A DNA stretch of 36,794 nt from a virus: the UHGV virus genome UHGV-0205693; one strand, 5' to 3'. The stretch's first letter is position 1. Each line of letters opens with the position of its first letter. The position numbers were made by a program, and so were the translations under genes. This document shows positions 1,445 to 34,664 of the stretch, piece after piece. Below the pieces are notes generated by a model that was not told the DNA's origin, did no database searches, and worked only from the letters and a program-made list of their open reading frames with translations.

Positions 1445-1460
1445 GGTCAGGATTCCGACC
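1445..1460. repeat. GGTCAGGATTCCGACC hairpin-repeat copy 1 (downstream of the DUF2971 moron, in the lysis leader)
   Basis: One of four copies of the GGATTCCGACC core seen in this window. Confidence 0.7.
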
Positions 1461-1514
1461 TGATTAACGCCTTACCCTCGCTTCACTACACAGTGAACCC
1501 CGCGGGGGTAAGGC

Positions 1515-1745
1515 ATGCGAATGAACAACCTTTCAGACGTAGCGGCGGGGGCCTCCTACGTCACTTCAATAGGCAGCGGCGGTTACTGGCTGCTGCAACT
1601 CCTCGATAAAGTCAGCCCGAGCCAGTGGGCGGCGATCGGCGTTCTTGCCAGTATCGTTTTCGGGCTGCTGACCTACCTCACCAACCTTTATTTCAAAATC
1701 AAAGAAGACCGGCGGAAGGCGCGCGACTATGAGCAACAAAGCTAA
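1515..1745 (+). CDS. S: class II pinholin, phage 21 S21-like, with an M-R-M dual-start motif
   Basis: [52 protein letters not shown] closely resembles S21. Two transmembrane segments. MRM at the N-terminus is typical of a holin/antiholin pair. Confidence 0.85.
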
Positions 1746-2265
1746 GCTCAGCGCTGCGATGCTGGCGCTCATTGCAGCAGGTGCATCAGCGCCGGTAATA
1801 ATGGACCAGTTTCTGACGGAGAAAGAAGGGAGCAGCCTCACCGCCTATAAAGACGGTTCTGGAATCTGGACCATTTGCCGCGGCGCCACGCGCGTGGACG
1901 GTAAGCCTGTAATTCAGGGTATGCGGCTGACGCAGGCCAAATGCGGCCAGGTAAACGCTATCGAGCGCGATAAGGCGCTGGCGTGGGTACAAAAGAACGT
2001 TCATGTTCCTCTTACCCCGCCGCAGGCCGTAGGCATTGCCTCGTTCTGCCCGTACAACATCGGGCCGGGTAAGTGCTTCCCCTCGACGTTCTACCGCAAG
2101 CTGAACGCCGGCGACCGCAAAGGGGCATGCGCGGAGATCCGCCGGTGGGTATTCGACGGCGGCCGGGATTGCCGGTTAACCAAAGGACAGAAAAACGGCT
2201 GTTACGGGCAGGTTGACCGCCGCGATCAGGAAAGTGCGCTGACGTGCTGGGGGCTGTACGAATGA
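1729..2265 (+). CDS. R: SAR endolysin (signal-anchor-release lysozyme, T4-lysozyme-like GH24)
   Basis: An N-terminal weakly hydrophobic SAR segment [17 protein letters not shown] is followed by the E-8aa-D-5aa-T catalytic triad ([16 protein letters not shown]). It overlaps the holin end, as in phage 21. Confidence 0.85.
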
Positions 2266-2621
2266 AAGGAAAAACCAAACTGGTGATTGTGGGGGGAGTG
2301 CTGGCGGTATGCGCCGGCATTTTCTGTGCGGGGTATCTGAAAGGTTGGTACGCGCATTCTGAGCAAGTGAACAGCCAGGCTAAAGCCAGACTGCAAAAAC
2401 AGGAAAAAGCGGTAGCAGAAGGCGAGCAGAAGGCGGCGACGGCGAACGCCGACGCCAAAGTGATTTACCGTACCGTTTATCGTGATGTGGTGAAATATGT
2501 CAATGACCCGAATCATACTAAGTGCCAGTTTGATCCTGCTGCTGTGCAGCTGCGCCAACGAGCAATCGACGCGGCCAACGCCATCCCCGGATTTGATGAA
2601 CCGACCGTGCAAGCTAAGTAA
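2262..2621 (+). CDS. Rz: i-spanin Rz
   Basis: ATG at 2262 overlaps the endolysin stop (ATGA). The N-terminal TM segment KLVIVGGVLAVCAGIFCAGYL is followed by a coiled-coil periplasmic domain. Position after the endolysin fits. Confidence 0.75.
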   Translation: MKGKTKLVIVGGVLAVCAGIFCAGYLKGWYAHSEQVNSQAKARLQKQEKAVAEGEQKAATANADAKVIYRTVYRDVVKYVNDPNHTKCQFDPAAVQLRQRAIDAANAIPGFDEPTVQAK

Positions 2622-2736
2622 CGCTGGCGTAGATAGCGACGCTGATCTGCTGGCAGATACACAATCAGCGGAGTGCGTGCGGGAGCTGCGTACCAATATC
2701 TACCGCTGGCAATCGTGGTATCGTGCGACTGAATAA
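2497..2736 (+). CDS. Rz1: o-spanin Rz1 (lipoprotein), +1 frame, overlapping and extending past Rz
   Basis: Signal peptide with an LLLCSC lipobox-like motif and a Pro-rich mature region. Starts inside Rz and ends 115 nt after it (overlapped architecture). Confidence 0.6.
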   Translation: MSMTRIILSASLILLLCSCANEQSTRPTPSPDLMNRPCKLSNAGVDSDADLLADTQSAECVRELRTNIYRWQSWYRATE

Positions 2737-2875
2737 ATATTGAATCTGGGGTATTATAAGCGTCAGAAGATAGTCTAAAACAGTGCTGTAACTTATTGTT
2801 TTCTCGCTACTAGATTATTGGTGTATGTTCGGATTATTTTCATATCTCATTGATATTTAAAATAATCACCACCAA

Positions 2876-2931
2876 TTTAAAATCCCTCGGCGTTCGCGCT
2901 GTGCGGGTTCAAGTCCCGCTCCGGGTACCAT
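2876..2931 (+). other. attP core: 3' part of tRNA-Leu(UAA), from the anticodon loop to CCA. Not a complete tRNA.
   Basis: ATTTAAAATCCCTCGGCGTTCGCGCTGTGCGGGTTCAAGTCCCGCTCCGGGTACCA matches the 3' end of enterobacterial leuZ-type tRNA-Leu(UAA). Upstream sequence is AT-rich non-tRNA DNA. The integrase is adjacent. Confidence 0.8.
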
Positions 2932-2964
2932 TGGGATAAAAGCAGAATAATCAAAGCAATAAGC

Positions 2965-2996
2965 AGTGTCGTGAAACCACCTACGGGTGGTTTTTT
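2965..2996 (+). terminator. rho-independent terminator (AAACCACC-tacg-GGTGGTTT followed by T7), probably the tRNA-associated terminator carried in attP
   Basis: Perfect 8-bp stem and a T-run, seen directly in the sequence. Confidence 0.6.
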
Positions 2997-3061
2997 TGTA
3001 TCTGAAACTCTCCTTTCCGAAGATGCGTCCGAAGATGATTTTTCCGCGAACGCATAGCGAT

Positions 3062-4078
3062 TCATTTTTTCTGACCGCCGACCACCGGCACGATTTTAGT
3101 TTTCCTGTCGTAAATTGCCGTCTGTCTCGAATTTTTATGACCTGAAATCGCCTGTTTCTCCTCGAGGCTTCCTTCCAAATCAGAAACACCTTTCGCCTTC
3201 AGATCATGGAAAGTGAAATCTATCTGCAGGTGCGGGTTCTTTTCCTGCGCTGCGATTTTGGCGTCGCGCCAGCGTGAATTAAAACCGTCGCGGGTGTATT
3301 TGCTGCCGCTGGTCTGGTGAATGACAAACAGGCTACGGATACCCGGCTTTAACGGCAGGGAGCGGGCGAGGGCGACAGCGGCGCGCAGGCGTGGCGACCA
3401 TGCTTTGATTTGCTTCACGCCTGTTTTCCCCTGGCGTATAAAGATCCCGGTTTCCCGTATCTGGTCTTCAGTCAAAGCCAGCACATCGCTTTGTCTGGCC
3501 AGACACAAATAAGCGATTTCCATGGTGGCGCGAACCACGTCCGGAGCAACGTCGTAAACCGCTTTGTATTCTTCGTCGGTGATGTAACGCTCCCTGGCCG
3601 TCTCTTTGAACTTCTTAACGCCCTGACAGGGATTATGCTGAACGTAACCGCGCTCATAACCCCAACGGAATACCCGCGAAAGAAAACTCTTTTCCCGGTT
3701 AGCCTGCGTTTTACTGGCCATGCCACGCTGATCCATATAGCGCCGGATGTGTTCTGGTTTAATTTTATCCGGGTTAACCTTCCCGAATACCGGCAACACT
3801 TTGCCTGCGTATTTCGTGTAGTCTTTTCGGGTTTCTGCCGCTAAATCCTGCCAGTCAGGGGAAGACATGAATTGATCGGCCAGAGCCTGAAACGTCTTGC
3901 GCTCGACTTCTTCTCCCATGGCTTTTTCATATGCCAGCCATACAGCTGATTGAGGCTCGGAGAGCGCACATAGCCTGATAGCCTTGTTATCTTTATTCCT
4001 GAATTCATACGCCGCCTTGCCGCGATACACGCGGGGCGGCATCCAGTTATCAGCGGGGTTCTTACGCTTTCCGGCCAT
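3062..4078 (-). CDS. int: tyrosine site-specific integrase
   Basis: 338 aa with a lambda-integrase-like organisation, a C-terminal catalytic region (HDLK...H...R...Y context), and adjacency to the tRNA-derived att core. Confidence 0.85.
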   Translation of the reverse strand: MAGKRKNPADNWMPPRVYRGKAAYEFRNKDNKAIRLCALSEPQSAVWLAYEKAMGEEVERKTFQALADQFMSSPDWQDLAAETRKDYTKYAGKVLPVFGKVNPDKIKPEHIRRYMDQRGMASKTQANREKSFLSRVFRWGYERGYVQHNPCQGVKKFKETARERYITDEEYKAVYDVAPDVVRATMEIAYLCLARQSDVLALTEDQIRETGIFIRQGKTGVKQIKAWSPRLRAAVALARSLPLKPGIRSLFVIHQTSGSKYTRDGFNSRWRDAKIAAQEKNPHLQIDFTFHDLKAKGVSDLEGSLEEKQAISGHKNSRQTAIYDRKTKIVPVVGGQKK

Positions 4079-4307
4079 TAAAGATAGCTCCGAAGTCTGG
4101 TTCTTCCTCCCGCACCGTTTCTTCCTGCTGGTTGCGGTATTTAATCGGGTTCAGGAAATGGCCCCACGTCGTTTTAGGATGGCCGTCTGCCCTTTCCATG
4201 AAAAAGACTCCGGCCCGGCGTAGCGCTTCACACTGCCGCGATTTAAGCGGTGTCCCCGTCAGTTCGATCATTTCCTCTCTGGTGATGATGTCGTGATCGT
4301 GTCTCAT
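4062..4307 (-). CDS. xis: excisionase-like / small DNA-binding protein
   Basis: 81 aa, overlaps the int start by 17 nt, and is preceded by the recurrent GAGGAAAGACCATG start context. The position is typical for xis. The sequence call itself is weak. Confidence 0.45.
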   Translation of the reverse strand: MRHDHDIITREEMIELTGTPLKSRQCEALRRAGVFFMERADGHPKTTWGHFLNPIKYRNQQEETVREEEPDFGAIFNGRKA

Positions 4308-4463
4308 GGTCTTTCCTCAGCATGCCGGCTATCGCGTTGTCTGCCGTATCGCAAGCGCGTTGGATATCGGACTGGGTCAGAGTCCTCTTTCTAACGCTGG
4401 CTGATAGCCTGCCAATTTTGATATCGAAATCTGAAAGTAAAAGTGTGCCTGGTTGCCAACGTA

Positions 4464-4500
4464 GCATTGTGATCTCCGGTTCATAGGTAGATCACAATGC
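4464..4500. repeat. perfect 12-bp inverted repeat GCATTGTGATCT / AGATCACAATGC with a 13-bp spacer
   Basis: Seen directly. Intergenic, between the small ORF ending at 4517 and xis. Confidence 0.8.
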
Positions 4501-4516
4501 TAACGACAGTTGCGGG

Positions 4517-4702
4517 TTATTTCTGATTAGGCTTAATCAGGTTTGGTTTATTCAGGAACGCGCCATTTTCGCGGGTGATTTTGGCACTGCGCGGAAAATG
4601 CATAGCCAGTTCGCAACGCGCGCAGGCTTCGATTATCCCGTTAGTACCGTCCGGAAAAACGACGTGAAGCGCGTCGCCTCGTTTCAGTGTGAGTTTCAGC
4701 AT
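4517..4702 (-). CDS. small hypothetical protein (about 61 aa, MLKLTLKRGD...), translationally coupled to the upstream gene
   Basis: ATG is 1 nt after the stop of the Gp157-like gene. CxxC motif present. Confidence 0.35.
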   Translation of the reverse strand: MLKLTLKRGDALHVVFPDGTNGIIEACARCELAMHFPRSAKITRENGAFLNKPNLIKPNQK

Positions 4703-4703
4703 A

Positions 4704-5270
4704 TCAGCGCACCTGCAGTGAACGTTCGCCAATCTCAAGGTGAGCGCCCGGCACTGGGTTTAACAGTTCTTCCGGTATCTCTCCGCCGTCAGCGCTAATC
4801 TGGGCCGCTGCTGCCTGTGCTGATTCAATCGCTTCCTTGATGGCTTTCTTGTCCGGAGTGACTAACGTCTGAACTGTCACTAATTCATCCGGCAGTAATT
4901 CATCATTATCGATCACGACGTTTATAGCTCCCTTACGTGCGGTAAAGGTATTTTTGGCGGTTTTAACCGTATCCTGACCGGCGGCCAGTAGGCACTGGAG
5001 AACATACTTCTTCAGGTTCGTGATCTTGCCTTCGAATGATTTTTTGCGGGCGGCGAGGCGTTTGGCCTCTTCATCACAGGTTTTTGCCAGACCTTCCAGA
5101 TTGCGAACATGCACAAACACCGCATCCAGTTTGTCGCCGAGTTGCAACTTAAGTCCTTCCATTGTGTCGGCAATCATTTCCGGAGACAGACCAGAGCCGT
5201 CTTCATTTTCCAGAAGCGCCTGGAGTTTTGACATATCGGCAGCGATAGCAATTGCAGTAGTAGAAGTCAT
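4704..5270 (-). CDS. Sipho_Gp157-family protein, commonly partnered with Sak/Erf recombinases
   Basis: 188 aa with an acidic N-terminus (LQALLENEDGS). The motifs AKRLAARKKSFEGKITNLKKYVL and VVIDNDELLPDELV match the Gp157 pattern. ATGA overlap with the upstream recombinase gene. Confidence 0.55.
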   Translation of the reverse strand: MTSTTAIAIAADMSKLQALLENEDGSGLSPEMIADTMEGLKLQLGDKLDAVFVHVRNLEGLAKTCDEEAKRLAARKKSFEGKITNLKKYVLQCLLAAGQDTVKTAKNTFTARKGAINVVIDNDELLPDELVTVQTLVTPDKKAIKEAIESAQAAAAQISADGGEIPEELLNPVPGAHLEIGERSLQVR

Positions 5271-7411
5271 TGTGCTTTCTCCTCGGCTTTATTCAGTTCT
5301 TTAATGCGGCCATCCTTAATGGTGATGAGTCGGCGGAGTCTGCCAGACAGATAGCGTTCATGCTGCGTATCGCCGTTGGCCTGGGCGGCTTTAATGTGTA
5401 CATCGATCTCACGTGCAATAGGGGAAAACACGCCATTGATTTCGTTCACCGTCACTCCATGTGCCAGGGTATTAGCAACGCGGCTTAATTTGTCGTCAAA
5501 CTCCTGGCGAAGCCGTGCTGCATCTTCGGCTGATTCGCTGGCGTTCTTCAGGTCAAACTCGGCCTTATTCTTCTGGCGGTACTCCAGATTGTCGTAAAGC
5601 CCCATAAAGATATCGCCGCTGAATCCTAGGCCGGATAACGCCTTTTTAGTGGCATCGGTAAGGGATTTTTTAGCGGCTTCCCCATCGCAGATCGGGCCAT
5701 ATTTGCTGCCGTAAATGTAGGGTGTGCAGCCGTAGGCGTATTCTTCTCCGCGAACATCGTTTACCAGATACCAAAGGCGAATTTTCATTACGTGATGTTT
5801 TTCAGTGAGGAAACCGCCATTACCATCTGAGATCAGTTCCCATGTATTGTTACCGTCACTTCCTTTTACAGTCCGTGTAATTGGCGCTCCATCGTCAAAG
5901 CGTTCTTCCAGTATATCGACGCCCCAGCCGCTGCCTTTCAGGCCGAACTCACGGGTAGCCAGCATCGTAAGATACGTGCCGTTGATTGAGGTGCCGCCGC
6001 CGTTTTGCGTGAATGCTTTGGTAAAGCGCTCATCGGTTTTGAAGACACGTTTCCACAGCGCCAGGTTGTCTTGTTCGGTGCCAGGATTACCGACTGATCG
6101 CACGACTTCTTCAGCGCTAGGCATGGTTTCTTTCTGGCTTATGTGCTCTACCAACTGCTCCACATCATCAGCAATTCTTTGCGCTTTGACGCTCAGTTTT
6201 TCCTCTGGCTCGCTGGCGATGTAATTGTCTGACGCATAAACGCCATAGCCCATATCGTTGAGCGTCTCACGCGCCTGTTTGGCCTGGGTATCGGTTACCA
6301 CCGGCTGTAGTGCTTCCGCTTTTTCGACCACGTTTGAGGCGGTATTTTGCGTTGCCTCTGGTTGTTTAACGGATCCTGTCTCGGTTTCTTCAAAGCGGCC
6401 GTTTGCCTCCAGCCATGAATCAATGTGGCGGCGTAGGCTGTCAGGGAAATGGTAGGTATCTTTTGCCGGGACGTTCTGCACTACGCCAAAAATACTGTCT
6501 CGGTCATATTTGAGGATGTGCTCCGTGGTGCGAAGCGCCATTGACCAACGTTTAAAATCTTCGCGCTCGTCTGCAATGATTTTCTCAGCATCGCGAAGGT
6601 TGCCTGATAATACTGGCGCGTCGGGAGAAATAGGGAGTAGGGCGACAGCGATCTCCTGATCCAGTGTTGCATAGGTATGTTTATAACCACGTTTGGGCGC
6701 GATTTTAACGTTGAAATCAGTGCTGGCGGTGCCGAGTGAGGAATTTTGGCCTGGTACCATTTCTTCACGTTTACCGGGATTCTCAAGCCAGCGTTTTACA
6801 AATTGAGAAATAGCCGCTTTGCCCGGAGTCTGGTTTTCAAAATGGGAGAAGATGCCCTGGATCAGATTGTTCAGACCTTCCACGTGCATATGTTTAACTG
6901 GCTCGTTGTTGTGCAGGGCGCAAAGCACATTGAAATTAAAACGGTCATCCTCTTCCATGGTTTCGTCGTGGTTATCCAGATCATCAAGATAATCTACAAC
7001 CTGCGAATAGAGCTGGCCGTTCATCTCTAATTTGCTGAAGAGTAATACAGCTGCAAAACGCTCCCTAGGGGATACCGTCATCAGATCGATAACTTCATCG
7101 CCTGTCGGCAGCTCGGTGACGTCACCATTCCGGATGTTAGCCACCCATTTTTCACCGTCAAAGGTATTTTCTCGGGCGAACTGCTCATCGAACTGGCCAA
7201 CGGTCGGCAGCGGCTGGCCCTCTTCGTGTTCCCACAGCTTAGGTTTGAAATAGTTATCACCATTTGCCGGGTAAGATTCCCAGAGTTTGCCGGTGATAAT
7301 GCTTTCGGCGACTTTCTTGTTTGGTGCTTCGACGGCGATCGCCAGCTGCACGGCGCCGCAGTCTTTGATTGCCGATTTTTTTGGCTCGAATAAGCCGTTG
7401 TAGATGGTCAT
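5267..7411 (-). CDS. 714-aa protein with a C-terminal Erf/Rad52-like single-strand annealing domain fused to an N-terminal region of about 450 aa of unknown function
   Basis: C-terminal segment TDATKKALSGLGFSGDIFMG and upstream YAYGCTPYIYGSKYG resemble the Erf/Sak/Rad52 SSAP signature (DA..RAL..LGfG). Sits in the early-left operon next to Gp157. Confidence 0.45.
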   Translation of the reverse strand: MTIYNGLFEPKKSAIKDCGAVQLAIAVEAPNKKVAESIITGKLWESYPANGDNYFKPKLWEHEEGQPLPTVGQFDEQFARENTFDGEKWVANIRNGDVTELPTGDEVIDLMTVSPRERFAAVLLFSKLEMNGQLYSQVVDYLDDLDNHDETMEEDDRFNFNVLCALHNNEPVKHMHVEGLNNLIQGIFSHFENQTPGKAAISQFVKRWLENPGKREEMVPGQNSSLGTASTDFNVKIAPKRGYKHTYATLDQEIAVALLPISPDAPVLSGNLRDAEKIIADEREDFKRWSMALRTTEHILKYDRDSIFGVVQNVPAKDTYHFPDSLRRHIDSWLEANGRFEETETGSVKQPEATQNTASNVVEKAEALQPVVTDTQAKQARETLNDMGYGVYASDNYIASEPEEKLSVKAQRIADDVEQLVEHISQKETMPSAEEVVRSVGNPGTEQDNLALWKRVFKTDERFTKAFTQNGGGTSINGTYLTMLATREFGLKGSGWGVDILEERFDDGAPITRTVKGSDGNNTWELISDGNGGFLTEKHHVMKIRLWYLVNDVRGEEYAYGCTPYIYGSKYGPICDGEAAKKSLTDATKKALSGLGFSGDIFMGLYDNLEYRQKNKAEFDLKNASESAEDAARLRQEFDDKLSRVANTLAHGVTVNEINGVFSPIAREIDVHIKAAQANGDTQHERYLSGRLRRLITIKDGRIKELNKAEEKAQ

Positions 7412-7443
7412 TGGTCTTTCCTCGTTTGTAACTAATTCGCTGG

Positions 7444-7728
7444 TTAGGCGTCTTGTTTAATTTCAGGGAGCAGTCCAGCGATCACGCGTTCTGCCGTTTT
7501 TTTTGCTTCTTCCAACTGCTCTAGTTCGCGTTCGAGATGAACCTTTTGGCTTTCTGCCAGTTCTTTAATTTCTGATGAATCGACTTTGAGATAGCTCTCG
7601 CCGTTTCTACCTTCCGCTAAAATCCCGGAGGAGCGGCATTCGTTACTGCAAATATTGATAATTCTGTTTGCGCGATCTAAGCGGTCTTTAATTTCGCGAA
7701 TTCTTTCAAGCAATTTTCTAATATCCAT
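7444..7728 (-). CDS. hypothetical coiled-coil protein (94 aa)
   Basis: ORF preceded by the GAGGAAAGACCATG start cassette. Confidence 0.5.
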   Translation of the reverse strand: MDIRKLLERIREIKDRLDRANRIINICSNECRSSGILAEGRNGESYLKVDSSEIKELAESQKVHLERELEQLEEAKKTAERVIAGLLPEIKQDA

Positions 7729-7772
7729 GGTCTTTCCTCTTGGTTACAGGCGCAGGTCACGCGCCCAGTTAA

Positions 7773-8183
7773 TTAAAACGGTACGTCGCTTTCTTCAATC
7801 GGAGAGTGGTCGATGCACAGCAGCTGCTGGATCTGGTCTTCAATAACGCTTAACTGTTTGTTGGCATCAGCAGATATTTGCTCTTTCTTCGCGCGAAGGG
7901 CATTAACCTGCATCCCGATAATATCGATAGGCTCTAAAGCAGGAATGGCAACCTCTACCGTTTTAGTTGTAACGAGAACATACAGATCAGGGTACTGCTG
8001 TGACATGTCACAGGTGAATGAGTGATAAGACGTTGGTAGGTATGGATTGGTTGTTGCCATAACGTAGATAGTTACGGGGATGGTAAGCGCTTCCATAGCG
8101 ACTCCTTGGTGATGTATACTCAGAGCCGATCGGCGACTCTGTCGTTGGTCTTTCCTCGCTACAGGGTTGGTCCCCTGTAGCAT
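7773..8183 (-). CDS. first gene of the pL operon. Candidate N-like antiterminator if translated from 8183 (N-terminal arginine-rich segment PVARKDQRQSRRSAL). An alternative start at 8098 has a strong AAGGAG ribosome-binding site and gives 108 aa.
   Basis: The position immediately downstream of the pL leader, boxB-like hairpins and a tL1-like terminator fits an N-like role. The arginine-rich motif is present only in the long form. Confidence 0.35.
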   Translation of the reverse strand: MLQGTNPVARKDQRQSRRSALSIHHQGVAMEALTIPVTIYVMATTNPYLPTSYHSFTCDMSQQYPDLYVLVTTKTVEVAIPALEPIDIIGMQVNALRAKKEQISADANKQLSVIEDQIQQLLCIDHSPIEESDVPF

Positions 8184-8300
8184 TCCTGGCGGATTGGTCT
8201 CCGCTGGGGTAAATCAGCCCACTCCGGTGGGCTTTTTTACGCCTGAATGTTGCCGGTCTTTCCCGGCTGTCAGGGTGGTCAGTCCCGTTGGTCTTTCCTC
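8145..8300 (-). repeat. two copies of a start-codon-less CGAGGAAAGACCAA unit (decoy RBS) in the pL leader, identical to the functional RBS unit at 7414-7427
   Basis: TTGGTCTTTCCTCG occurs on the plus strand at 8145-8158 and 8287-8300 with no ATG following on the minus strand. Confidence 0.7.
8226..8249 (+). terminator. rho-independent terminator on the plus strand (AGCCCAC-tccg-GTGGGCT followed by T6) inside the minus-strand operon
   Basis: Perfect 7-bp stem and a T6 run, seen directly. Confidence 0.6.
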
Positions 8301-8431: not shown

Positions 8432-8487
8432 TGTCAGAACTGTTTCTGAACAACTGCCGCGTGGTTAGTGCCTCGTTGATGGGAGGA

Positions 8488-8516
8488 ATATTAATAATGA
8501 TAATATTATCGGTCAA
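8488..8516 (-). promoter_or_regulatory. pL candidate (TTGACC, 17 nt, TAATAT on the minus strand) within an AT-rich OL region containing AATATTA-type palindromes (ATAATATTAT; AAAATATT..AATATTTT)
   Basis: Hexamers and spacing were read from the reverse complement. The same AATATTA palindrome family appears in OR. Confidence 0.5.
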
Positions 8517-8569
8517 CATTAAAATATTAATTACGACAATATTTTTTGTATGGTGTTGATAATTTAGAT

Positions 8570-10167: not shown

Positions 10168-10169
10168 GT

Positions 10170-26471: not shown

Positions 26472-29186
26472 GTGAGAATACCAACTGGAAATTTCGGCAA
26501 TGTAACGCCGCAGGCGCAGCAAAACCGGGTGGCAGTCAGCAACGTTGGCGCCGTAGGCAATGCCATTTCAGGCGCAGGCGTGGCATTAGGCGAAGCTGCT
26601 GATCTGGAACAGCGCCGACAGGATAAAGCTGAGGTAGCGGCGACGCAGGCTATCCTGACCGATCTGGAAGCTAAATCTAATGACCGCTGGGAAAACCCGG
26701 AGACGGGCGCCACGGTCACGCGTCAGGGCTTTAAATCGTCCGGTGTGGTCACCGATATGGATAAGGCCGACGCTGGCGATTACGAGGAAGCGCGCAAGCG
26801 CGTCCCGCCCAGCCAGTTAAACTATTTTGATGCACAGTGGAAAGCGGGACAGGTACGTCGAACAAGCACCTATAGCGGTTTCGAACGTGCGCAGACTGAG
26901 GAAGCCCAGCGCCAGCAGCTTAACGCGACAGTGACCTCTTCAGTTGAACAAGAGGCCAGCGCCTACGATAACCCGATGCAGGCGGGGCTGATACGCAGCG
27001 CCCGTAAACACTCGATCGAGATGTATGGCCAGGCGCGCGGCTGGCCGCAGGAACGTATCGACGCGGCGGTATCGGAAGCGAACCAAAAAGCGCTGGAGCA
27101 GCGCGCGCAGAACTACGCGGTAACCAATCCCACCGGCTGGCTTAATGGTGATTTTACGCTGGTCAACAGCAGCACCGGCGAACTTGATATGCGCGCCGTT
27201 GGCCTGGTGGAATCCGGCGGCAAGCACCGCAATGCAGATGGTAGCCTTGTTACATCCCCCGCGGGCGCGCAGGGTGAATTTCAGTTGATGCCGGACACCG
27301 GGAAAGAACTGGCGTCTAAACGTGGCGTGGAGTACAACCCGGACGACCCTGTGCAGCATGCGCAGCTGGCGCGCGATTATGCCGGGCAGCTCAGTAAAAA
27401 ATATCAGTCTGAAACGTTGGCCGGCGCTGCATATAATTGGGGTATGGGTAACGTCGATAAGCTGATCGCTAAAGTTGGCGACCCGCGTAAAGGCGAAATC
27501 TCAATGGCGGATTTCGTTAAGCAGCTGCCAGCCGAAACGCGTGGTTGGCTGTCCCGCTACAACAAAAATAAAACTGGCCTCGACCCGGTAGCGGTAAACA
27601 AAATCGACAATATCGCCGAATCGCAGATCCGAGAACAGCGAGCGGCGCTGCGCCAGCAGATGGAGCCCATCGTTAATAATACATTTTCTCAGCTGTACAA
27701 TGGTGATGTTCCCGAAGCGATGCCTAATGCCGAAACCATCATGTTCATGTACGGCGAGAAAGGGCAGCAGGTAGTAAAGCAGCTGGATATCGCGATCGAT
27801 ACCGCCAGAACCTTCCAGGCTATCCAGTACGTCACCCCGGCAGAGCAGCAGGCCGAACTGGCGAAAGTGAAGCCGCAGGCAAACGACCCGGATTACGCAC
27901 TGAAACTCGATGCGTACGGCAAACTTAATGCGCTGGTGCAGAAGAGCAACGCCAATATTCAGGCGCAGCGTGATTCCGCCCGCTTTAACGACGCGCTGAT
28001 CTCCGGCGAGAAACTCGACCCGAGCAACAAATCCATGCAGAAGGCGGCGGACAATACGCCATCGGCGCTTAACTTCCGCATTAACGACGCCACCACTCAC
28101 GACGCTATCGTGCAGCAGGTTAACCAGACGGGCATTATCCCATCGCAAGTTACATCCCAACTGAATGCGATCGCCCGCTCCAGTAGCCCCGACGTGGTTA
28201 AGCAGGGATCGACCTTATTTAACGCGCTATACGAAACTGATCCTGCCTCTGTGGGCGATATGCCAAAGGATATGCAAAGCTTTTACCTGACCGTTAAACA
28301 GCTTACCGATTCCGGTATGGCTTCAGACGAAGCGGTGAAGCAGGCACAGAACGTGACCTATAACCAGACTGACGCCCTGAAATCGCAATTGTCTTCTACG
28401 CAGAGCACGAAGGAATACAAAAAAGAGCGTGCCAGCGCGATGGATTCCGCAGTCAGTAGCATGAAACCGTGGTACAGCTTTGGTGGCCCCGCTGCAGATG
28501 ACCAGAATCCTAATTCAGTAAAATTCCGTAATGACTACCAGTCACTTTATGACATCAATTATCGCAATTCGGGTGGTAATGCTGATATCGCCAAAAAGAT
28601 GACTAATGCCCAGATCACCCGTACCTGGAGCCTTAGCGATGTAAATGGCAGCACTCAGCTTATGAAATATGCGCCTGAAGCGCTCTATAACTACGGGCCA
28701 TCTGGTTGGCAGGCTGCGCAGTGGAAAGAAGAAAAAGAGCGCCTGACCTATGGCGAACGTGGAGAAAAAATTGAAACCAGTCCGACCCAACTGGGGATTA
28801 CATCAGGTTCAGCGCCCGTTATTACATCAAATACCCCAGAATCGAGGATTGGTGGAGAGCTGGAAATAACCCCGGATATTTTTACTCCGCATGATCGTGA
28901 TTACGCGATTATGGTTCGCATAAAAGACAAAGATGGTATCCCCAGAGCACAGCCTTATTACGATAAATTTGGTCGTCCCATGCGCTGGAAACCTGACATT
29001 GAAAAATGGGGACCATATCAAAAAATGCAGCAGGAGAGGGAGCAACAAGGTGAAGAGGAAATATCACGCGGGAAAGATATTCGAGGCTTTAAGGAAAAAC
29101 ACCGCGCGCTCGATGAGCAATATCAGCGTTTGCATGATGACCGTATGAACCGGTTTAAAAAATACTTTTCATGGAGCAATGAATAA
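26472..29186 (+). CDS. internal virion (ejection) protein with a lytic transglycosylase (SLT) domain, gp15/gp16-like
   Basis: VESGGKHRNADGSLVTSPAGAQGEFQLMPDTGKEL is the SLT motif (ES..., GA.G.MQLMP.T). 904 aa. GTG start. Confidence 0.7.
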   Translation: MRIPTGNFGNVTPQAQQNRVAVSNVGAVGNAISGAGVALGEAADLEQRRQDKAEVAATQAILTDLEAKSNDRWENPETGATVTRQGFKSSGVVTDMDKADAGDYEEARKRVPPSQLNYFDAQWKAGQVRRTSTYSGFERAQTEEAQRQQLNATVTSSVEQEASAYDNPMQAGLIRSARKHSIEMYGQARGWPQERIDAAVSEANQKALEQRAQNYAVTNPTGWLNGDFTLVNSSTGELDMRAVGLVESGGKHRNADGSLVTSPAGAQGEFQLMPDTGKELASKRGVEYNPDDPVQHAQLARDYAGQLSKKYQSETLAGAAYNWGMGNVDKLIAKVGDPRKGEISMADFVKQLPAETRGWLSRYNKNKTGLDPVAVNKIDNIAESQIREQRAALRQQMEPIVNNTFSQLYNGDVPEAMPNAETIMFMYGEKGQQVVKQLDIAIDTARTFQAIQYVTPAEQQAELAKVKPQANDPDYALKLDAYGKLNALVQKSNANIQAQRDSARFNDALISGEKLDPSNKSMQKAADNTPSALNFRINDATTHDAIVQQVNQTGIIPSQVTSQLNAIARSSSPDVVKQGSTLFNALYETDPASVGDMPKDMQSFYLTVKQLTDSGMASDEAVKQAQNVTYNQTDALKSQLSSTQSTKEYKKERASAMDSAVSSMKPWYSFGGPAADDQNPNSVKFRNDYQSLYDINYRNSGGNADIAKKMTNAQITRTWSLSDVNGSTQLMKYAPEALYNYGPSGWQAAQWKEEKERLTYGERGEKIETSPTQLGITSGSAPVITSNTPESRIGGELEITPDIFTPHDRDYAIMVRIKDKDGIPRAQPYYDKFGRPMRWKPDIEKWGPYQKMQQEREQQGEEEISRGKDIRGFKEKHRALDEQYQRLHDDRMNRFKKYFSWSNE

Positions 29187-32080
29187 TGCCTATCTACCCG
29201 CAATCCGATGTTCCGCCGAGTGTAATGGACAATGCTCTTCAGGCGCCAACTGGTTTTGATGTATCTCTGCCTGAAGGAACTAACCCGGAGCCACAGCAGC
29301 AACAACCGTCTGTATGGGATGCCGCTTTTCGTCAGAATAACCTGCTCGCCGGGATGTTCCGCCCGGCTAAACAATTTGAGCCGGCGGAGGGGTATAACCC
29401 TTATTCTGATAAAAACGAACTAAAGGGGTACGAACAATGGGGATCCGCCTTTGCGGATTCACAATCCCCAGAGGAAACAGCCTGGATTAAAAACCGGATA
29501 GACGATGAAAACGAAGACCGCCGGGTGCTGTCTGAAGCAGGTGCCGAAGGAACTTTAGCCAGTATAGCCGCCGGGGTTATCGACCCCGTCACAGTCGCAT
29601 CGATGTTTATCCCCGGTGCGCAGGGAAGCCTGGCTGCTCGTATTGGTTCTCAGGTTGCTATTGGCGCCGCCGGTACCGCGCTTAGCGAGGTTGCGCTCAA
29701 TAACGAGCAGTATACCAGAACAGCAAGGGAGAGCGCCGCACACATCACAGCCGGCGCACTTCTCAGCGGTGTATTTGCTACCGCTGGCGCGATGATCACC
29801 CCGTCGGTAAGAAACGCGGCCACCCGTGAAGTGGCGGAGGCGCTCGATAATATGAACGCCTCGCCAACGATTAACAACGCAGCCGATGCCCTGGAGGATA
29901 CTTTACCGAACGGTGGCAGCGTCGGTGCTATGCGTATTCGCGAAGCTACACTGGAAGATCTTACGCCAGTGTCTGGCGGCCCGCTCGGAAAGCTGGCTAA
30001 AAAAGCCGGTAGCTATCTGACGCCGATCACCCGCCTGATGGAATCCCCATCAAAAGAAGCGCGCCGGACAGCGCTGGAGCTGGCAGAGAATAACTTCACG
30101 CTGGAAGGCAACCTGCGCGGTATTGAAACGCCGGTTGCAGCTGAGACGCGCGTACGTGGCTGGCGCCGCGAAGAGGCGGCCGTCGTTACTGCGAATAAGC
30201 AGGCATACACCCAGTACAAAGCCGAAGGCGGTGATCTGGGTTATACGGCCTTCCGTGAACAGGTTGGCGAGGCGCTGCGCAACGGCGACGTGCACGTCAA
30301 TGCGAAAGTGCAGGAAGCGGCGCAGGCAATGCGTACAGTCATTAACCGCGTGAAGACAGCACAGCAGGAACTGGGCTTACTTCCGCCGGATGCCGAACTG
30401 AAAGCGATGGGACAGACCAGCTATTTCCCACGCGTGTACAAGGTAGGGAAAATCGTTAGCGAGCGCGATAAATTCCGCAACATGCTGGTTGACTGGTGGT
30501 CACGCGGTGAGAAAACCATGTCCCGCGAAGATGCCGAAATCGCCGCCGATACCACTATCAACCGTATCGTTGGGGCCAAAATTCCGCAGGAGTTTGCCAA
30601 CGTCTTTATGGTGAAAGCGCCGGGCAGCACTAAATCGCGTACGTTGAGCGTTCCCGATCGCCTGATGAAAGATTATCTGGAGAGCGACGCTAACTACGTC
30701 CTGCAGCGTCATATCCGCGAAGCCTCGGCAGAAATCGAATTAACCCGCACCTTTGGCAACAAGTCGCTGGATTCGCAGCTCGCCGCCATCCAGGACGAGT
30801 ACGACGCGCTAATGCGTTTACGCCCGGCGGAACAGGAAAAGCTGGCGAAAGCACGTGAAGCCGACCTGCGCGATATTCTGGCGCTTCGCGATCGCCTCGT
30901 CGGTACCTACGGTATGCCGGATGACCCATCATCATTTTTCGTCCGCGCCGGTGCTTTCCTGCGTAGCGCCAACTTTGTAACGAAACTCGGCGGCATGACG
31001 GTATCCGCTATCCCGGATCTGGCGCGCGGCATGATGGTTAACGGCTTCAGCAACACCATGCGTGGATATGGCGCACTGATCACCCGCTCGCCGGCTTACC
31101 TCGCCAACCGGGCGGAGCAGAAGAAAATGGCCGTGGGGCTTGAAACCATACTGCATACCCGCGCGCGTACGATGGGGGATCTGGTCGATAGCTCTTCACG
31201 TACGACAGCTGCAGAAGCTGGCATGGAGCGTATTACCGATGTGTTCGGAAAGCTGACCATGATGGGCCACTTTGACGATATGAACAAATCGGTGAATGGC
31301 ATGATCACGTCCGACGGTATTCTGTCCGGCGCGTTCCCTGCGAAGCGCCTGGCAAAACTCGGCATCAATGAGAAGATGGCCGAACGCATCCAGCGAGAAT
31401 TTCAGAAGCACGGCGAAGTTATTCAGGGCTGGCATATCGGCAATTTCGAAAAATGGGATGACCAGTACGCCGCTGGCCTGCTGCAATCTGCTGTGCTGAA
31501 GGATGTAAACAATACCGTTATCACGCCGGGGATTGGTGATACGCCGCTATGGGCCAGTACCCCGTTGGGGAAAACCGTATTCCAGTTTAAGTCTTTTGCC
31601 ACGGCGTCATATAACCGCGCGACGCTCGGCGGCCTGCAGGAAGGTACCGCGCAGTTCTATTACGGTACCGCCTTCCAGATTGGTCTGGGCTCTTTGACCT
31701 ATGCGCTTAAGCAGGCGGCTAACGGTCGGGAAGTTGATTTGACGCCGCAGAAGATGGTTCTCGAGGGCATAGACCGTTCTGGTATCCTCGGCCCGCTGAT
31801 GGAATATAACAACATGGCGGAAAAGGCATCCGGAGGGATGATAGGGTTAGGGCCATTACTCGGCACCGGTACGCAGTCCCGGTACGCCAGCCGCGGCTTT
31901 ATCGGTTCGGCACTGGGGCCAACCTTCGGCCTACTGGATACGGTTACCGATGTGACCGCCGGCGTGCTGAATGGTGACGCTGGCGACCGTGTGCTGCATA
32001 GCGTGCGTACGTTGTTACCAGGTAATAATCTGTTCTGGATCGCACCACTAATTAACCAGGTAGACCCAGGGATGCGTTAA
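29186..32080 (+). CDS. large internal virion / ejection protein (gp16-like), 964 aa
   Basis: Size and position after the SLT-containing protein. ATGA-type coupling. Confidence 0.55.
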   Translation: MPIYPQSDVPPSVMDNALQAPTGFDVSLPEGTNPEPQQQQPSVWDAAFRQNNLLAGMFRPAKQFEPAEGYNPYSDKNELKGYEQWGSAFADSQSPEETAWIKNRIDDENEDRRVLSEAGAEGTLASIAAGVIDPVTVASMFIPGAQGSLAARIGSQVAIGAAGTALSEVALNNEQYTRTARESAAHITAGALLSGVFATAGAMITPSVRNAATREVAEALDNMNASPTINNAADALEDTLPNGGSVGAMRIREATLEDLTPVSGGPLGKLAKKAGSYLTPITRLMESPSKEARRTALELAENNFTLEGNLRGIETPVAAETRVRGWRREEAAVVTANKQAYTQYKAEGGDLGYTAFREQVGEALRNGDVHVNAKVQEAAQAMRTVINRVKTAQQELGLLPPDAELKAMGQTSYFPRVYKVGKIVSERDKFRNMLVDWWSRGEKTMSREDAEIAADTTINRIVGAKIPQEFANVFMVKAPGSTKSRTLSVPDRLMKDYLESDANYVLQRHIREASAEIELTRTFGNKSLDSQLAAIQDEYDALMRLRPAEQEKLAKAREADLRDILALRDRLVGTYGMPDDPSSFFVRAGAFLRSANFVTKLGGMTVSAIPDLARGMMVNGFSNTMRGYGALITRSPAYLANRAEQKKMAVGLETILHTRARTMGDLVDSSSRTTAAEAGMERITDVFGKLTMMGHFDDMNKSVNGMITSDGILSGAFPAKRLAKLGINEKMAERIQREFQKHGEVIQGWHIGNFEKWDDQYAAGLLQSAVLKDVNNTVITPGIGDTPLWASTPLGKTVFQFKSFATASYNRATLGGLQEGTAQFYYGTAFQIGLGSLTYALKQAANGREVDLTPQKMVLEGIDRSGILGPLMEYNNMAEKASGGMIGLGPLLGTGTQSRYASRGFIGSALGPTFGLLDTVTDVTAGVLNGDAGDRVLHSVRTLLPGNNLFWIAPLINQVDPGMR

Positions 32081-32120
32081 CGGTTAGGATATGGAGGATA
32101 AACAATAAGATGGGGATGGA

Positions 32121-32615
32121 TTGATGAGGAATATCACTAAATTTATAGGTGCATGTCTATGTGCCTTATATCTTTCTGGTTGCGCGTCTACAAAATCGGT
32201 TGATGTGGTTTCAACAGAAAAAATAGATGCACCAAAAGTAATTGCGATCTCTGGTAGCAAAGGTTTGTGGGTTAAAGAAATTCAAAAACGATTGCGTAAT
32301 AAAGGATTTACAATTAAACGCTCTGTTAGCCAACAGACCATTATAGAAAAGGAGTCGGTTGATAGGACGGCTGTCTATAGGGATGCTTCAGCGAGATATG
32401 TTTTAGTTCTTGATGGCTATGCCCCTAGCGATTCTTTTCAGCGTTGCGTAGGCGGTGGTGGTTATAAATTCGATTATATAAATGCTGAGTTAGTTGATTT
32501 GGCAAAAAATGAGACAATTTTCTCTTATTCAAACTCCGGTTATTCAGAGGGCTGTCCGTTAGGTGGGACAATATTTACAGATATTGAAAACCTAATGGTT
32601 AACTCTTGGCGATAA
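32121..32615 (+). CDS. AT-rich moron lipoprotein (164 aa, LSGC lipobox)
   Basis: Signal peptide MMRNITKFIGACLCALYLSGCAS with a canonical lipobox. GC content far below the neighbours. Confidence 0.65.
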   Translation: MMRNITKFIGACLCALYLSGCASTKSVDVVSTEKIDAPKVIAISGSKGLWVKEIQKRLRNKGFTIKRSVSQQTIIEKESVDRTAVYRDASARYVLVLDGYAPSDSFQRCVGGGGYKFDYINAELVDLAKNETIFSYSNSGYSEGCPLGGTIFTDIENLMVNSWR

Positions 32616-32647
32616 TTAATAGTTAAGGCGGATGTAGCTCAACAATA

Positions 32648-32662
32648 GTCAGGATTCCGACC
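32648..32662. repeat. GTCAGGATTCCGACC hairpin-repeat copy 3 (33 nt after the lipoprotein moron)
   Basis: Sixteen bp identical to copy 1. Confidence 0.7.
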
Positions 32663-32680
32663 TCAAGCCCGGCACATCAT

Positions 32681-32710
32681 AGCCCTATGGATAACCACGG
32701 GGCTTTTTTA
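32681..32710 (+). terminator. rho-independent terminator (AGCCC...GGGCT followed by TTTTTT) after the lipoprotein moron
   Basis: Stem with an internal TGG/CCA helix and a T6 run. Confidence 0.45.
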
Positions 32711-33057
32711 TGCATTCAGATTACAAAACTCGCCTTACTGCTCTTAGCGATAAGCTCACCGATGTAGTTCTGGAAGAAGCCGATCCGGACAACTGGCCGG
32801 GGGCAGGAAAGGAAATCACAAAGCACACCAAACAGGAACGCGGCGATCGGTACTGGCATAAGAAGAATGCGGCCGCCTCGCTAACCCTGCTGGTAAAAGT
32901 CCATTCACTTATTGGTATGCACACTCGCGGCGGTACGCCAAAAACCGGCGGAGAAGATCCGGACGATGAAGCGTTCCTGTTAGGTCAGCAGGTAGCAGCT
33001 GCTGAGCGTAAAGCGCTGGAAGTCATCGAGAGGCTGCAACACAAAGGCAAAAAATGA
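32710..33057 (+). CDS. terminase small subunit (T7 gp18-like)
   Basis: 115 aa directly upstream of, and overlapping, the large terminase. Weak resemblance to gp18. Confidence 0.45.
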   Translation: MHSDYKTRLTALSDKLTDVVLEEADPDNWPGAGKEITKHTKQERGDRYWHKKNAAASLTLLVKVHSLIGMHTRGGTPKTGGEDPDDEAFLLGQQVAAAERKALEVIERLQHKGKK

Positions 33058-34664
33058 TTTCGTTCCTGGCCTTCTTTTTGATGTGGGCGGAACGGATGAA
33101 TTGGGATGTGCCGGACTGCCACTATAAAGCCTGCCACTGGCTGGAGCATCGCGGAAACCTCGCGGTACTTCGCTGTTTTCGTGGCTTTGGTAAATCAACT
33201 ATCCTGGGCGTTTATAACGCCTGGCGGTATTACTGCGATCGCCAGTACCGTATTCTGCATCAGTCGGAATCCGATACAACCGCCAGAAAGACCAGCCGCG
33301 ATACGCAAAACGTTCTGCGTAATCACCCACTGACGAAAGGTATGTTGCCGGACGGCATCGGTACCATCGAGCAATGGTGGGTAAACGGCGCGCTGGATAT
33401 GCGTAACGCCAGCATGTTCGCAAAAGGCATTCTGTCGAACGTTACCGGCGCCCGTGCCAACGAGTGCCAGAATGATGACGTGGAGGTGCCCGGCAATATC
33501 CAGACTCCGGAGGCTCGCGAAAAACTGCGCTATCGCCTAAGCGAGCAGACGCATATTTTGATACCCGGAGGCCGAAAATTGTTTATCGGTACGCCGCATA
33601 CCCACGATAGCCTTTACGACGAGAAAGAAGCAGAGGGCGCCGATTGCCTAACGATAAAGCTATTCGATAAAGAGCACCGCGTCGAAGCGAAGAAGGCAAC
33701 CAAAAAACGATACCGGATACCGTTCCGCCCGGAATATGTTTTCGTGGGGATCCACAAGGCCGCCAGGCTACTGATCGAGGGTACTGATTACCGATTGACG
33801 GAAGACGGCGTAGAGTTCGCGGCGCCGCCCGAAACGGTCGTGGATTTTTACGCCGGCTGCGCGTGGCCGGGCCGTTTCGATCATGATGAATTACTGCTGC
33901 GTCGTAAAGAATGCCGCACAGTCAACGAATGGGATAGCCAGTACCAGCTGCACAGTAAACCGGTTGGAGAAGTTCGCCTCGACCCTGACCGCATCCGCGA
34001 ATACAAGGTACAGCCTGAAATCCGCTACGCGAACCGCTCTTGTTCGATGTGGCTGGGCCAGACGCAAATCGTCGGTGCTGTCGCCTGGTGGGATGTAGCC
34101 ACCGGCAAAGTTAAGGCCGACGCCTCGGCATTCTCCCTGATTTTCACCGACGCGCGCGGGCATCTGTACTGGCATGTTTGCCAGGGATTAACTGGCGAGC
34201 TGGCAGAGTTTGACGACAACGACAAAATCACCGGCGGCCAGGTGATGCAGATTAAAGAACTGGTGTTGAAGTACCAGATCCCGCTGGTATGCGTTGAGGT
34301 CAACGGCCCCGGCAGCTTTGCCGGGAAGTTGCTGATTCAGGCGCTGAAGGGGACCGGCTGCGGCGTACGAGAAGAGTTCAGCGTCACCAACAAACAAAAG
34401 CGCATCCTCGATGCATTCGAAGCGCCGCTGTCGTCGCGGTTCCTGTGGGCACATACCGACGTGCTCGATGGCCCGATGTACGACCAGATGCGAGACTTTA
34501 ACCCGGCGCTGACTAATCAGCCCGATGACTTTATTGATTCCGGTTCCGGCGCTATCAGCTCAACACCAGTGCGCATTGGTAAATTGGTCGGGATTCCGAC
34601 CGCACAGGCGCGGGAACATTGGCAACCAAACGATGGCGATCACATGGTCGCCGTAGATTACTAG
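33054..34664 (+). CDS. terminase large subunit (T7 gp19-like)
   Basis: LRCFRGFGKSTILGVYNAWRY...ILHQSESDTTARKTS parallels T7 gp19 [21 protein letters not shown]...ILIVSASKERADANS (Walker A). Confidence 0.75.
   Translation: MISFLAFFLMWAERMNWDVPDCHYKACHWLEHRGNLAVLRCFRGFGKSTILGVYNAWRYYCDRQYRILHQSESDTTARKTSRDTQNVLRNHPLTKGMLPDGIGTIEQWWVNGALDMRNASMFAKGILSNVTGARANECQNDDVEVPGNIQTPEAREKLRYRLSEQTHILIPGGRKLFIGTPHTHDSLYDEKEAEGADCLTIKLFDKEHRVEAKKATKKRYRIPFRPEYVFVGIHKAARLLIEGTDYRLTEDGVEFAAPPETVVDFYAGCAWPGRFDHDELLLRRKECRTVNEWDSQYQLHSKPVGEVRLDPDRIREYKVQPEIRYANRSCSMWLGQTQIVGAVAWWDVATGKVKADASAFSLIFTDARGHLYWHVCQGLTGELAEFDDNDKITGGQVMQIKELVLKYQIPLVCVEVNGPGSFAGKLLIQALKGTGCGVREEFSVTNKQKRILDAFEAPLSSRFLWAHTDVLDGPMYDQMRDFNPALTNQPDDFIDSGSGAISSTPVRIGKLVGIPTAQAREHWQPNDGDHMVAVDY
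34587..34602. repeat. GGTCGGGATTCCGACC hairpin-repeat copy 4 (inside the 3' end of the large terminase gene, encoding KLVGIPTA)
   Basis: TTGGTCGGGATTCCGACCGC is identical to copy 2 over 20 bp. Confidence 0.7.

Follow-up and report, generated by a model that had tools for sequence, protein, structure and literature searches.

The repeat and its five sites

UHGV-0205693 (36,794 nt; the whole stretch is referred to here as the window) is, since its attP is intact, a temperate podophage and not a prophage fragment, and it carries a virion module of the T7/BPP-1 type. The subject of this report is a 16-bp imperfect dyad that recurs in this genome. All five copies lie on the coding strand, each ahead of a block of late genes (Table 1). 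Each copy is probably the upstream part of a late promoter of sigma-70 type that depends on an activator, and the small helix-turn-helix (HTH) protein encoded just before the late region, HTH98, may well be the activator.

The core of the motif, GGATTCCGACC, occurs four times, all on the + strand (1450, 21866, 32652 and 34591). Only 0.03 occurrences are expected, and none of 100 dinucleotide-preserving shuffles reached four, which bears out the claim of an earlier note, made from the sequence alone, that an 11-mer core recurs far above chance. Of the four start positions given in that note for the full repeat, 1445 and 21861 are correct and the other two are off by one, the true positions being 32647 and 34586. 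Copies 2 and 4 are indeed identical over 20 bp (TTGGTCGGGATTCCGACCGC) and copies 1 and 3 over 16 bp (GTCAGGATTCCGACCT), and copy 4 is located within the 3' end of the large terminase gene, as described. The start GGTC(G/A) is not found in copy 3, which reads AGTC, and the count of four overlooked a fifth, degenerate copy (17400-17415, + strand), which surfaced when three mismatches were allowed. A position weight matrix scan of both strands scored the five sites at 47.3, 44.6, 38.4, 31.2 and 18.7 bits, and the next match at 9.5 bits. Each copy had been said to form a stem-loop. This holds for copies 2 and 4, which together with the 17400 copy fold at -11.1, -11.1 and -12.8 kcal/mol (z -3.5 to -4.4). 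It does not hold for copies 1 and 3, both of which have an A·C mismatch: copy 1 adopts an alternative fold (-6.3 kcal/mol, z -1.3) and copy 3 is essentially unfolded (-2.1 kcal/mol, z -0.2).

After a 12-nt spacer, all five sites are followed by a hexamer that matches nAnnnT exactly. No -35 hexamer is present at any of them, the bases at that distance being GGATTC, GATTCC or GGGATT (at most one of six matches to TTGACA), nor is there a -35-like hexamer within the motif itself or the TG of an extended -10 at -15/-14, and a consensus promoter scanner called none of the five. The missing -35 and TG extension point to dependence on an activator. Site 1 lies inside the 3' end of the HTH98 gene and precedes the first late gene (ATG at 17463), a small open reading frame (ORF), the portal and the scaffold; at the homologous position, relatives have an exact or one-mismatch motif. 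Site 2 precedes the genes for the capsid, tail tube and internal virion proteins, site 3 those for the small and large terminase subunits, site 4 (embedded in the 3' end of terL) the tail fibre or spike gene, and site 5 the lysis cassette of holin, lysozyme and putative Rz-like ORF. The late genes would fall into five units, one running from the first late gene to the scaffold, one from the capsid to the internal virion proteins, and one each for terminase, tail fibre and lysis.

The layout of such a promoter would be A-TTT, GGTCRGGAWWCCGACC, 12 nt and nAnnnT. Relative to the predicted start, the recognition element would span about -44 to -25, with the ATTT flank at -44 to -41 and the motif at -40 to -25, and the hexamer would be a weak -10 box used by the host sigma-70. 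The promoters would be silent until a phage factor bound the imperfect dyad GGTCGG-N4-CCGACC in duplex DNA and recruited RNA polymerase, the activator sitting where sigma region 4 normally reads the -35. A binding site for a phage or host factor, one of several possibilities raised in the earlier note, is in this way supported in a narrower form, as the -40 to -25 element of what are predicted to be activator-dependent late promoters.

Table 1. Features of the window. Genes were assigned by Pfam and PHROG searches, some by position or homology as indicated; NCBIfam was also searched.
Feature	Position	Strand	Remarks
Predicted late promoter 5	1441-1478	+	TTTT, GGTCAGGATTCCGACC (copy 1, 1445-1460), 12-nt spacer, TACCCT (1473-1478); 38.4 bits
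Long hairpin	1469-1514	+	Base pairing between the -10 region of promoter 5 and the ribosome-binding site of the holin gene, before AUG 1515
Holin, P21 type	1515-1745
Lysozyme	1729-2265
Putative Rz-like ORF	2244-2621		Position only; no significant family match
attP-like stretch	about 2875-3009
Integrase	3062-4078	-	DNA homology to annotated integrases, e.g. of phage ZF40
Exonuclease, 714 aa	5267-7411	-	PHROG 2489; leftward early operon; largest ORF otherwise without assignment
HTH protein, candidate repressor	8621-9076	-	HTH_3/HTH_31
Small transcriptional regulator	9183-9416		PHROG 35; Cro-like by position
Rightward operon	about 10170-16983		Replicative helicase (annotation of homologous phage BUCT709), methylases, DUF1367/NinB-like protein, RecA-dependent nuclease
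HTH98, candidate cognate regulator, 98 aa	17139-17435	+	Last gene before the late region; 3' end overlapped by promoter 1
Predicted late promoter 1 (degenerate motif)	17396-17433	+	TTTT, GGTCGGGAAACTGACC (17400-17415), 12-nt spacer, CACAAT (17428-17433); 18.7 bits
Portal, T7 gp8 type	18139-19761
Small ORF	19761-19994		PHROG 5977; positional counterpart in the P. syringae prophage (L216) has Pfam Phage_Bbp19
Scaffold	19981-20829		By position; no family match; YeP4 homologue annotated 'endoprotease'
Intrinsic terminator after scaffold gene	20847-20874	+	10-bp stem and T-run; -13.4 kcal/mol, z -3.95; closes the first late unit
Moron insert, capsid slot	20882-21854	+	ORF 20951-21835, low GC; absent from 23 relatives
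Predicted late promoter 2	21857-21894	+	ATTT, GGTCGGGATTCCGACC (copy 2, 21861-21876), 12-nt spacer, AACAAT (21889-21894); 47.3 bits
Capsid (Phage_capsid_2)	21944-22936
Tail tube proteins	22996-25549		Position and homology to YeP4/relatives; no family match
Internal virion proteins	26004-32080		SLT domain in one
Moron insert, terS slot	32091-32646	+	ORF 32121-32615, low GC; absent from 14 relatives
Predicted late promoter 3	32643-32680	+	AGTCAGGATTCCGACC (copy 3, 32647-32662), 12-nt spacer, CATCAT (32675-32680); 31.2 bits
Hairpin and U6	32681-32709	+	Begins 1 nt past the -10 hexamer of promoter 3 and runs to the terS AUG
Small terminase (terS)	32710-33057		Position upstream of terL; PHROG 9277
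Large terminase (terL), T7 type	33054-34664
Predicted late promoter 4	34582-34619	+	GGTCGGGATTCCGACC (copy 4, 34586-34601), 12-nt spacer, GAACAT (34614-34619); 44.6 bits
Tail fibre or spike	34681-36780		T7 gp17 N-terminal domain and GDSL esterase

Conservation in related phages and the accessory gene slots

The late half of the genome returned no megablast match among 50,697 phage genomes, and relatives were therefore located via the motif and via proteins. Among isolated phages the nearest are YeP4-6 (MK733262-4), inducible temperate podophages of Yersinia, with portal and capsid proteins 82% and 83% identical. An exact-pattern scan of IMG/VR found the motif at no fewer than 120 loci, many of them from contigs of about 36 kb. 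Among the IMG/VR matches listed, 131 of 152 occurrences fell into the same five contexts as in the window, and their orientation was in every case that of the genes that follow. They were at the junctions scaffold/capsid (43), terL/fibre (29), internal virion protein/terS (22) and HTH gene/first late gene or portal (15), and ahead of the lysis genes (22). These positions carry the motif also in contigs with a guanine-plus-cytosine (GC) content of 62-70% and in genomes of Serratia, Symbiopectobacterium and Zeimonas. A Pseudomonas syringae prophage has the variant AGTCGGGAAMCCGACA / AAATAGTCGGGAAMCCGACA at three sites, each with the 12-nt spacing and nAnnnT, and YeP4 has motif sites ahead of the lysis genes, the first late gene and the capsid gene. 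Judged from these comparisons, the motif is a feature of this phage family and not a host repeat; the earlier note had allowed for a ubiquitous host repeat family unconnected with cargo boundaries.

The distance to the hexamer is fixed. Among the matches listed, nAnnnT at offset +28 was found at 95% or more of the sites in each of five non-homologous classes (mean 99%), and no other offset from -50 to +79 rose above 2% in the worst class; the hexamer accompanied 116 of 120 exact motifs and 44 of 56 motifs with one mismatch. In a class-balanced profile, A at +29 and T at +33 each have a frequency of 0.99 and A at -4 of 0.95, and positions -3 to -1 are T-rich. The second and sixth positions of the hexamer are constant while positions 1 and 3-5 vary within and between classes, examples being AACAAT, CATTAT, GACCAT, TACCCT, TACTCT, CATCAT, GAAGAT and CACACT. 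A constant A at position 2 and T at position 6 (the -11A and -7T contacts) are the hallmark of the sigma-70 -10 element, and this signature at +28 places the motif at -40 to -25.

That copies 1-3 adjoin low-GC inserts was confirmed. Two of the inserts were mapped against insert-free relatives, 23 for the capsid slot and 14 for the terS slot, and end 0-6 nt before the motif. Each is a moron in the usual sense of an extra gene, missing from close relatives and of deviant composition (GC 0.37-0.45 vs ~0.55 in the flanks). At the capsid slot homology ends at 20881, just past the scaffold terminator, and resumes at 21855-21857, which is 4-6 nt ahead of the motif; the corresponding points at the terS slot are 32090 and 32648. 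The T-tract of the terminator runs directly into ATTT and the motif in insert-free relatives, so that an insert must land at the upstream edge of the promoter and the alignment must resume there. Relatives have inserts of over 20 other sizes (95-1309 bp) at the same two slots, and the right junction is the same to within ~6 nt. The motif at variable-cargo junctions, which the earlier note had suggested looking for in relatives, is a real and general association and marks reused cargo slots. Sites free of inserts are also common among the matches listed (capsid 18 of 37, terS 15 of 22, and all 29 fibre sites, every one inside terL). The link between motif and morons is real but indirect, and the motif is present independently of cargo. 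Morons gather just upstream of predicted promoters 2, 3 and 5, where the stretch from the preceding gene or terminator to the upstream edge of the promoter would be the only place that tolerates an insert. This edge is defined by the break in homology with insert-free relatives at about -45.

In the leading idea of the earlier note the motif is a hotspot for recombination or integration, at which morons would be captured or exchanged. The many differently sized inserts that share a right junction near the motif are what such a hotspot would produce, a conserved block of 20-40 bp could be a homology anchor for cassette exchange between related phages, and a piece of this phage family captured by the virulent phage Ro1 starts exactly at the motif. 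A hotspot is, however, unneeded to explain the distribution, as insert-free genomes keep the motif at the same five positions and not one of the 29 fibre sites has an insert. A recombination site has no need of a fixed orientation or a fixed 12-nt distance to a -10 hexamer. The inserts have a single motif copy, at the right boundary only, with no flanking copies, and their left junctions are scattered. The attP, beside int, is unrelated to the motif, and the motif sites are internal. We consider this explanation unlikely; it is possible that the conserved promoter serves as a secondary homology anchor for cassette exchange.

The Ro1 sequence (Raoultella phage, Vequintavirinae; NC_048682, gp206; 2501-2669 of locus L134) is the start of a gene annotated 'tail fiber protein' and is 93.5% identical to nt 1446-1614 of the window. 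The match takes in motif, leader and the initial 33 codons of the holin gene, which are fused to fibre sequence, and the A of the -10 is lost (TGCCCT). The fragment appears to have been captured from a resident prophage of this phage family.

The window has three low-GC cargo ORFs (417-1322 on the - strand, 20951-21835 and 32121-32615). The DUF2971 protein gave weak PADLOC matches to the candidate defence system PDC-S31 (E 2.5e-5), the 294-aa cargo ORF gave coiled-coil-type matches only, and the 164-aa ORF gave none.

HTH98 and the proposed mode of control

HTH98 is the candidate regulator because its gene stands constantly upstream of the first late site: directly so in relatives of 31-100% identity, including YeP4. 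In GC-rich relatives (31-41% identity) this synteny is kept with no other early gene in common, and it is found in Enterobacterales, Zeimonas and P. syringae as well. The YeP4 homologue is 51% identical, and the arrangement is retained there though the replication module is entirely different (DNA polymerase, primase). When loci were picked by HTH98 homology alone, ~80 of 93 had a motif (up to four mismatches) at the end of the gene, mostly with the hexamer. Homologues make up at least 357 protein clusters, all 'hypothetical', from prophages of Enterobacterales, Pseudomonas, Lysobacter and Burkholderiales; among the 50,697 phage records they are confined to YeP4-6 and two Acinetobacter phages, which are also the records with the closest portals. 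Hardly any variation is seen in the recognition helix (GVSKSAVLGWK), in parallel with the near-invariance of the motif, and the apparently conserved C-terminal 'GRETDQ/GRESDR' corresponds to the predicted promoter read in frame.

The AlphaFold2 model of HTH98 resembles a five-helix lambda-repressor-like domain, with four helices at residues 11-20, 25-32, 36-44 and 50-64 and a predicted local distance difference test score (pLDDT) of 87-91 in the core. Its best Foldseek matches in the PDB were CapH-NTD, P22 C2, C.BclI, C.Kpn2I, C.EcoT38IS, C.AhdI and SinR. There was no match to the Mor/C family profile (PF08765) and no zinc finger, and NCBIfam returned no match for HTH98 or for any of ten small early proteins searched. 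In lambdoid phages the end of the delayed-early operon, before the late genes, is held by a positive late regulator. HTH98 would act as a dimer on the motif, and the synteny makes it a reasonable, if far from certain, choice for the activator of the late promoters. A 112-aa Cys-rich regulator (15292-15630, PHROG 536), also considered as activator, was rejected as the common factor, since neither YeP4 nor the GC-rich relatives in which the motif is retained have it.

Several points weigh against this reading of the motif and of HTH98. Sequences within a class are homologous and their site counts are not independent, so that the argument depends on there being five classes and a number of lineages; the -10 hexamers, with 3-4 of six matches, are weak; and the promoter and activator roles are read from sequence alone. 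HTH98 matches PHROG 16553, which is labelled 'transcriptional repressor', its matches to Pfam HTH_23 and HTH_3 score below the curated cut-offs, and the Foldseek E-values are only 0.03-0.3 (probabilities about 1.0). In addition, the HTH98 loci of Acinetobacter phage TPWB-05, Ventosimonas, Rhodocyclaceae and Entomomonas have no recognisable motif, so that the linkage over long evolutionary range is not universal.

The motif might instead be an operator at which a repressor, HTH98 or another protein, holds the late promoters off, as the PHROG label would suggest. A dyad over the -35 region is also a typical location for a repressor, and many of the fold matches are repressors (P22 C2, SinR, HipB). 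However, promoters with no -35, no extended -10 and so poor a -10 hexamer should be inactive unaided, leaving little to repress, and the HTH gene occupies the place at the end of the delayed-early operon where lambdoid phages have a positive regulator. We regard repression as improbable, and activation through the dyad as the better account.

Natural variants of the motif, collected with up to four mismatches and with the -10 hexamer required, bear on the choice between a DNA site and an RNA element. They include G0>A (21 sites), G4>A (46 sites), AA, AT or TC for the central TT, C11>T and C14>A, and almost all of them place A opposite C, G opposite A or G opposite T within the putative stem (pairs 0-15, 1-14 and 4-11); a compensatory change (A4/T11) was found at one site only. 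The hairpin, whose conservation the earlier note had proposed to check, is accordingly broken in relatives. The tolerated positions 4/11 and 0/15 are dyad mates and the half-site centres are 10 bp apart, as would be expected for a dimeric HTH protein on duplex DNA.

It is very unlikely that the motif works as RNA, be it a terminator hairpin, a site of RNase processing or a signal for antitermination of the put/nut kind, even though three of the copies fold well, every copy is on the transcribed strand, and a distant lineage (L133) alters both dyad mates jointly (T2/A13 to G2/C13). None of the copies is followed by a U-tract or called in a terminator scan, and the stem is lost in two of the four copies first described; the moron-associated terminator or processing site suggested in the earlier note fails on these grounds and on the uncompensated variants. 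The loop and the 5' ATTT flank are conserved as strongly as the stem, and a motif upstream of the predicted start would not be part of the RNA made from its own unit. The entire window gave no match in Rfam and tRNA scans, and the motif is not a tRNA fragment or a member of a known RNA family.

That the motif is instead a promoter used by an RNA polymerase or sigma factor of the phage's own, like the T7 class III promoters, is suggested by the T7-like virion module (gp8-type portal, gp10-type capsid, gp17 N-terminal domain, T7-type terminase) and by a conserved 16-20 bp element ahead of capsid, fibre and lysis genes, which resembles the placement of T7 phi10 and phi17, but is hardly credible when the hexamer has the constant A and T of a sigma-70 -10, HTH98 is too small for a sigma factor, no polymerase or sigma gene is annotated in YeP4, and Pfam, PHROG and NCBIfam searches of ~45 plausible ORFs of the 36.8-kb genome (the other small ORFs being too short) found no single-subunit polymerase (PF00940 type), multisubunit polymerase or sigma gene. 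The 714-aa ORF was considered as a hidden RNA polymerase and rejected, as it belongs to an exonuclease family.

The proposed activator-dependent promoters most likely belong to a familiar class of gene control in phages, of which they would be a new, undescribed instance. The 97-aa HTH protein CII of phage lambda activates pRE, pI and paQ, which have a usable -10, carry a repeat at ~-41 to -26 in place of the -35, and are inactive without CII. The geometry here (-40 to -25, a 98-aa HTH protein) is near-identical. CII sites, however, are direct repeats (TTGC-N6-TTGC) bound by a tetramer, whereas the site here is an inverted repeat; CII drives lysogeny genes and not late genes; and the two proteins have no significant sequence similarity (profile against PDB CII, E 0.5-0.8). 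In the Mu Mor/C and P2 Ogr/P4 Delta systems, scattered late promoters with a conserved dyad and a poor or absent -35 are served by a small activator and the host sigma-70 polymerase, and the activator is made at the end of the preceding transcription phase. The mode of working proposed here is like that of these systems and of P1 Lpa, and the use of one conserved element in one orientation at several late-operon promoters (five here) is shared with the Mu C, P2 Ogr and lambda CII type. The Mu and P2/P4 activators belong to other protein families than HTH98, and their sites are centred near -43 (Mu C and Mor) or -55 (Ogr), compared to -32.5 here.

The controller (C) proteins of restriction-modification systems are lambda-repressor-like HTH dimers that bind short dyads overlapping the -35 and activate sigma-70 transcription, and the HTH98 model has C.BclI, C.Kpn2I, C.EcoT38IS and C.AhdI among its best structural matches. 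These matches are weak (E about 0.06-0.3, identity 13-21%), and C proteins do not govern a phage late regulon but form the autoregulatory switch, with paired operators, of restriction-modification operons. The T7 class III promoters likewise place a sequence of ~20 bp ahead of capsid, fibre and other late genes and occur at terminator-promoter junctions, but they are read by the phage's own single-subunit polymerase, no gene for which was found here, where the -10 signature is that of sigma-70. YeP4/5/6 have an HTH98 homologue and motif sites in common with UHGV-0205693 and differ in the early/replication module. Neither the motif (including its variants) nor HTH98 was found in the searchable full text of the literature, and the description of YeP4 and the APSE paper do not mention promoters.

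Three loci with HTH98 homologues differ from the general pattern or carry cargo of their own. The first is Acinetobacter phage TPWB-05 (locus L222, PQ374146), a more distant relative, which has portal and HTH98 proteins 47% and 41% identical and no motif; upstream of its late genes are shared CACCCAACAAAC-like boxes, followed by a hairpin and U-tract before the start codon, with no fixed spacing to any -10. In Entomomonas sp. (CP094972, locus L220, 7639-8258), a prophage remnant, the homologue comes right after a Mor-family (PF08765) gene, and the motif was not found near it. The third, in Pantoea alhagi (CP019706, locus L218, 8001-11100), is a degraded prophage of the family. Inserted ahead of its first predicted late promoter (AGTCAGGATTCCGACT, N12 and CACACT at 9825), after the HTH98 homologue, are genes for CdiI-like immunity and for a bacterial RNase-A-like toxin, a further use of the slot upstream of a late promoter; frameshifted gpX and portal remnants lie downstream. 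Because of these remnants, the locus (int, primase, HTH98) is not taken for a satellite with a helper-type activator, as was considered.

Read-through transcripts and the rest of the genome

Two RNA structures would form only in transcripts that enter a late unit from upstream. The hairpin between promoter 3 and terS has a folding energy of -13.2 kcal/mol (z -3.6) with its 5' arm and -0.9 without, and is conserved in terS-class relatives; it should terminate only RNA arriving from upstream, e.g. from the moron. The long hairpin ahead of the holin gene reaches -31 kcal/mol (z -6.7), while RNA from the predicted +1 (about 1485) reaches only -7.8 (z 0.3). The pairing is retained in 16 relatives, mostly via wobble changes, and the holin would be translatable only from the late-promoter transcript and not from read-through RNA.

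A wider proposal can be put forward only tentatively and, taken as a whole, is rather doubtful. HTH98 may represent a new, widespread family of late activators of beta- and gamma-proteobacterial prophages, without a Pfam or NCBIfam model, that replaces -35 recognition at -40 to -25 and rewires a T7/BPP-1-type virion module to the host polymerase. Read-through RNA structures would gate late genes, above all lysis, to activator-fired starts, and the promoter edges would act as fixed, transcriptionally insulated cargo slots.

The five predicted promoters and the one candidate activator amount to a testable map for a large, almost unstudied group of temperate podophages of Klebsiella, Raoultella, Enterobacter, Serratia, Yersinia, Pseudomonas and beta-proteobacteria. 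The promoter reading would account for the placement of accessory genes, as slots upstream of late promoters are tolerated and repeatedly reused, and this may aid the finding of defence or virulence cargo. The 38-bp signature (ATTT, motif, N12 and nAnnnT) could mark late-operon starts in the annotation of this group, and HTH98, if confirmed, would provide a compact, orthogonal activator-promoter pair usable across several proteobacterial hosts.

The genome is a strong mosaic. While the late half is unmatched, the early/replication region (nt 4304-16973) is 86.5% identical to the 'Stenotrophomonas' phages BUCT708/709 over 42% of the query; the host label of these two phages looks doubtful, as the sequence is of enterobacterial type. 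The capsid ORF is called from 21944, yet its Pfam capsid match starts at residue 37, and a GGAG is present at about 22011-22014. The true start is probably downstream of 21944, and the leader would then be ~120 nt long and include a conserved CCGGCGGGGACGCCGG hairpin.

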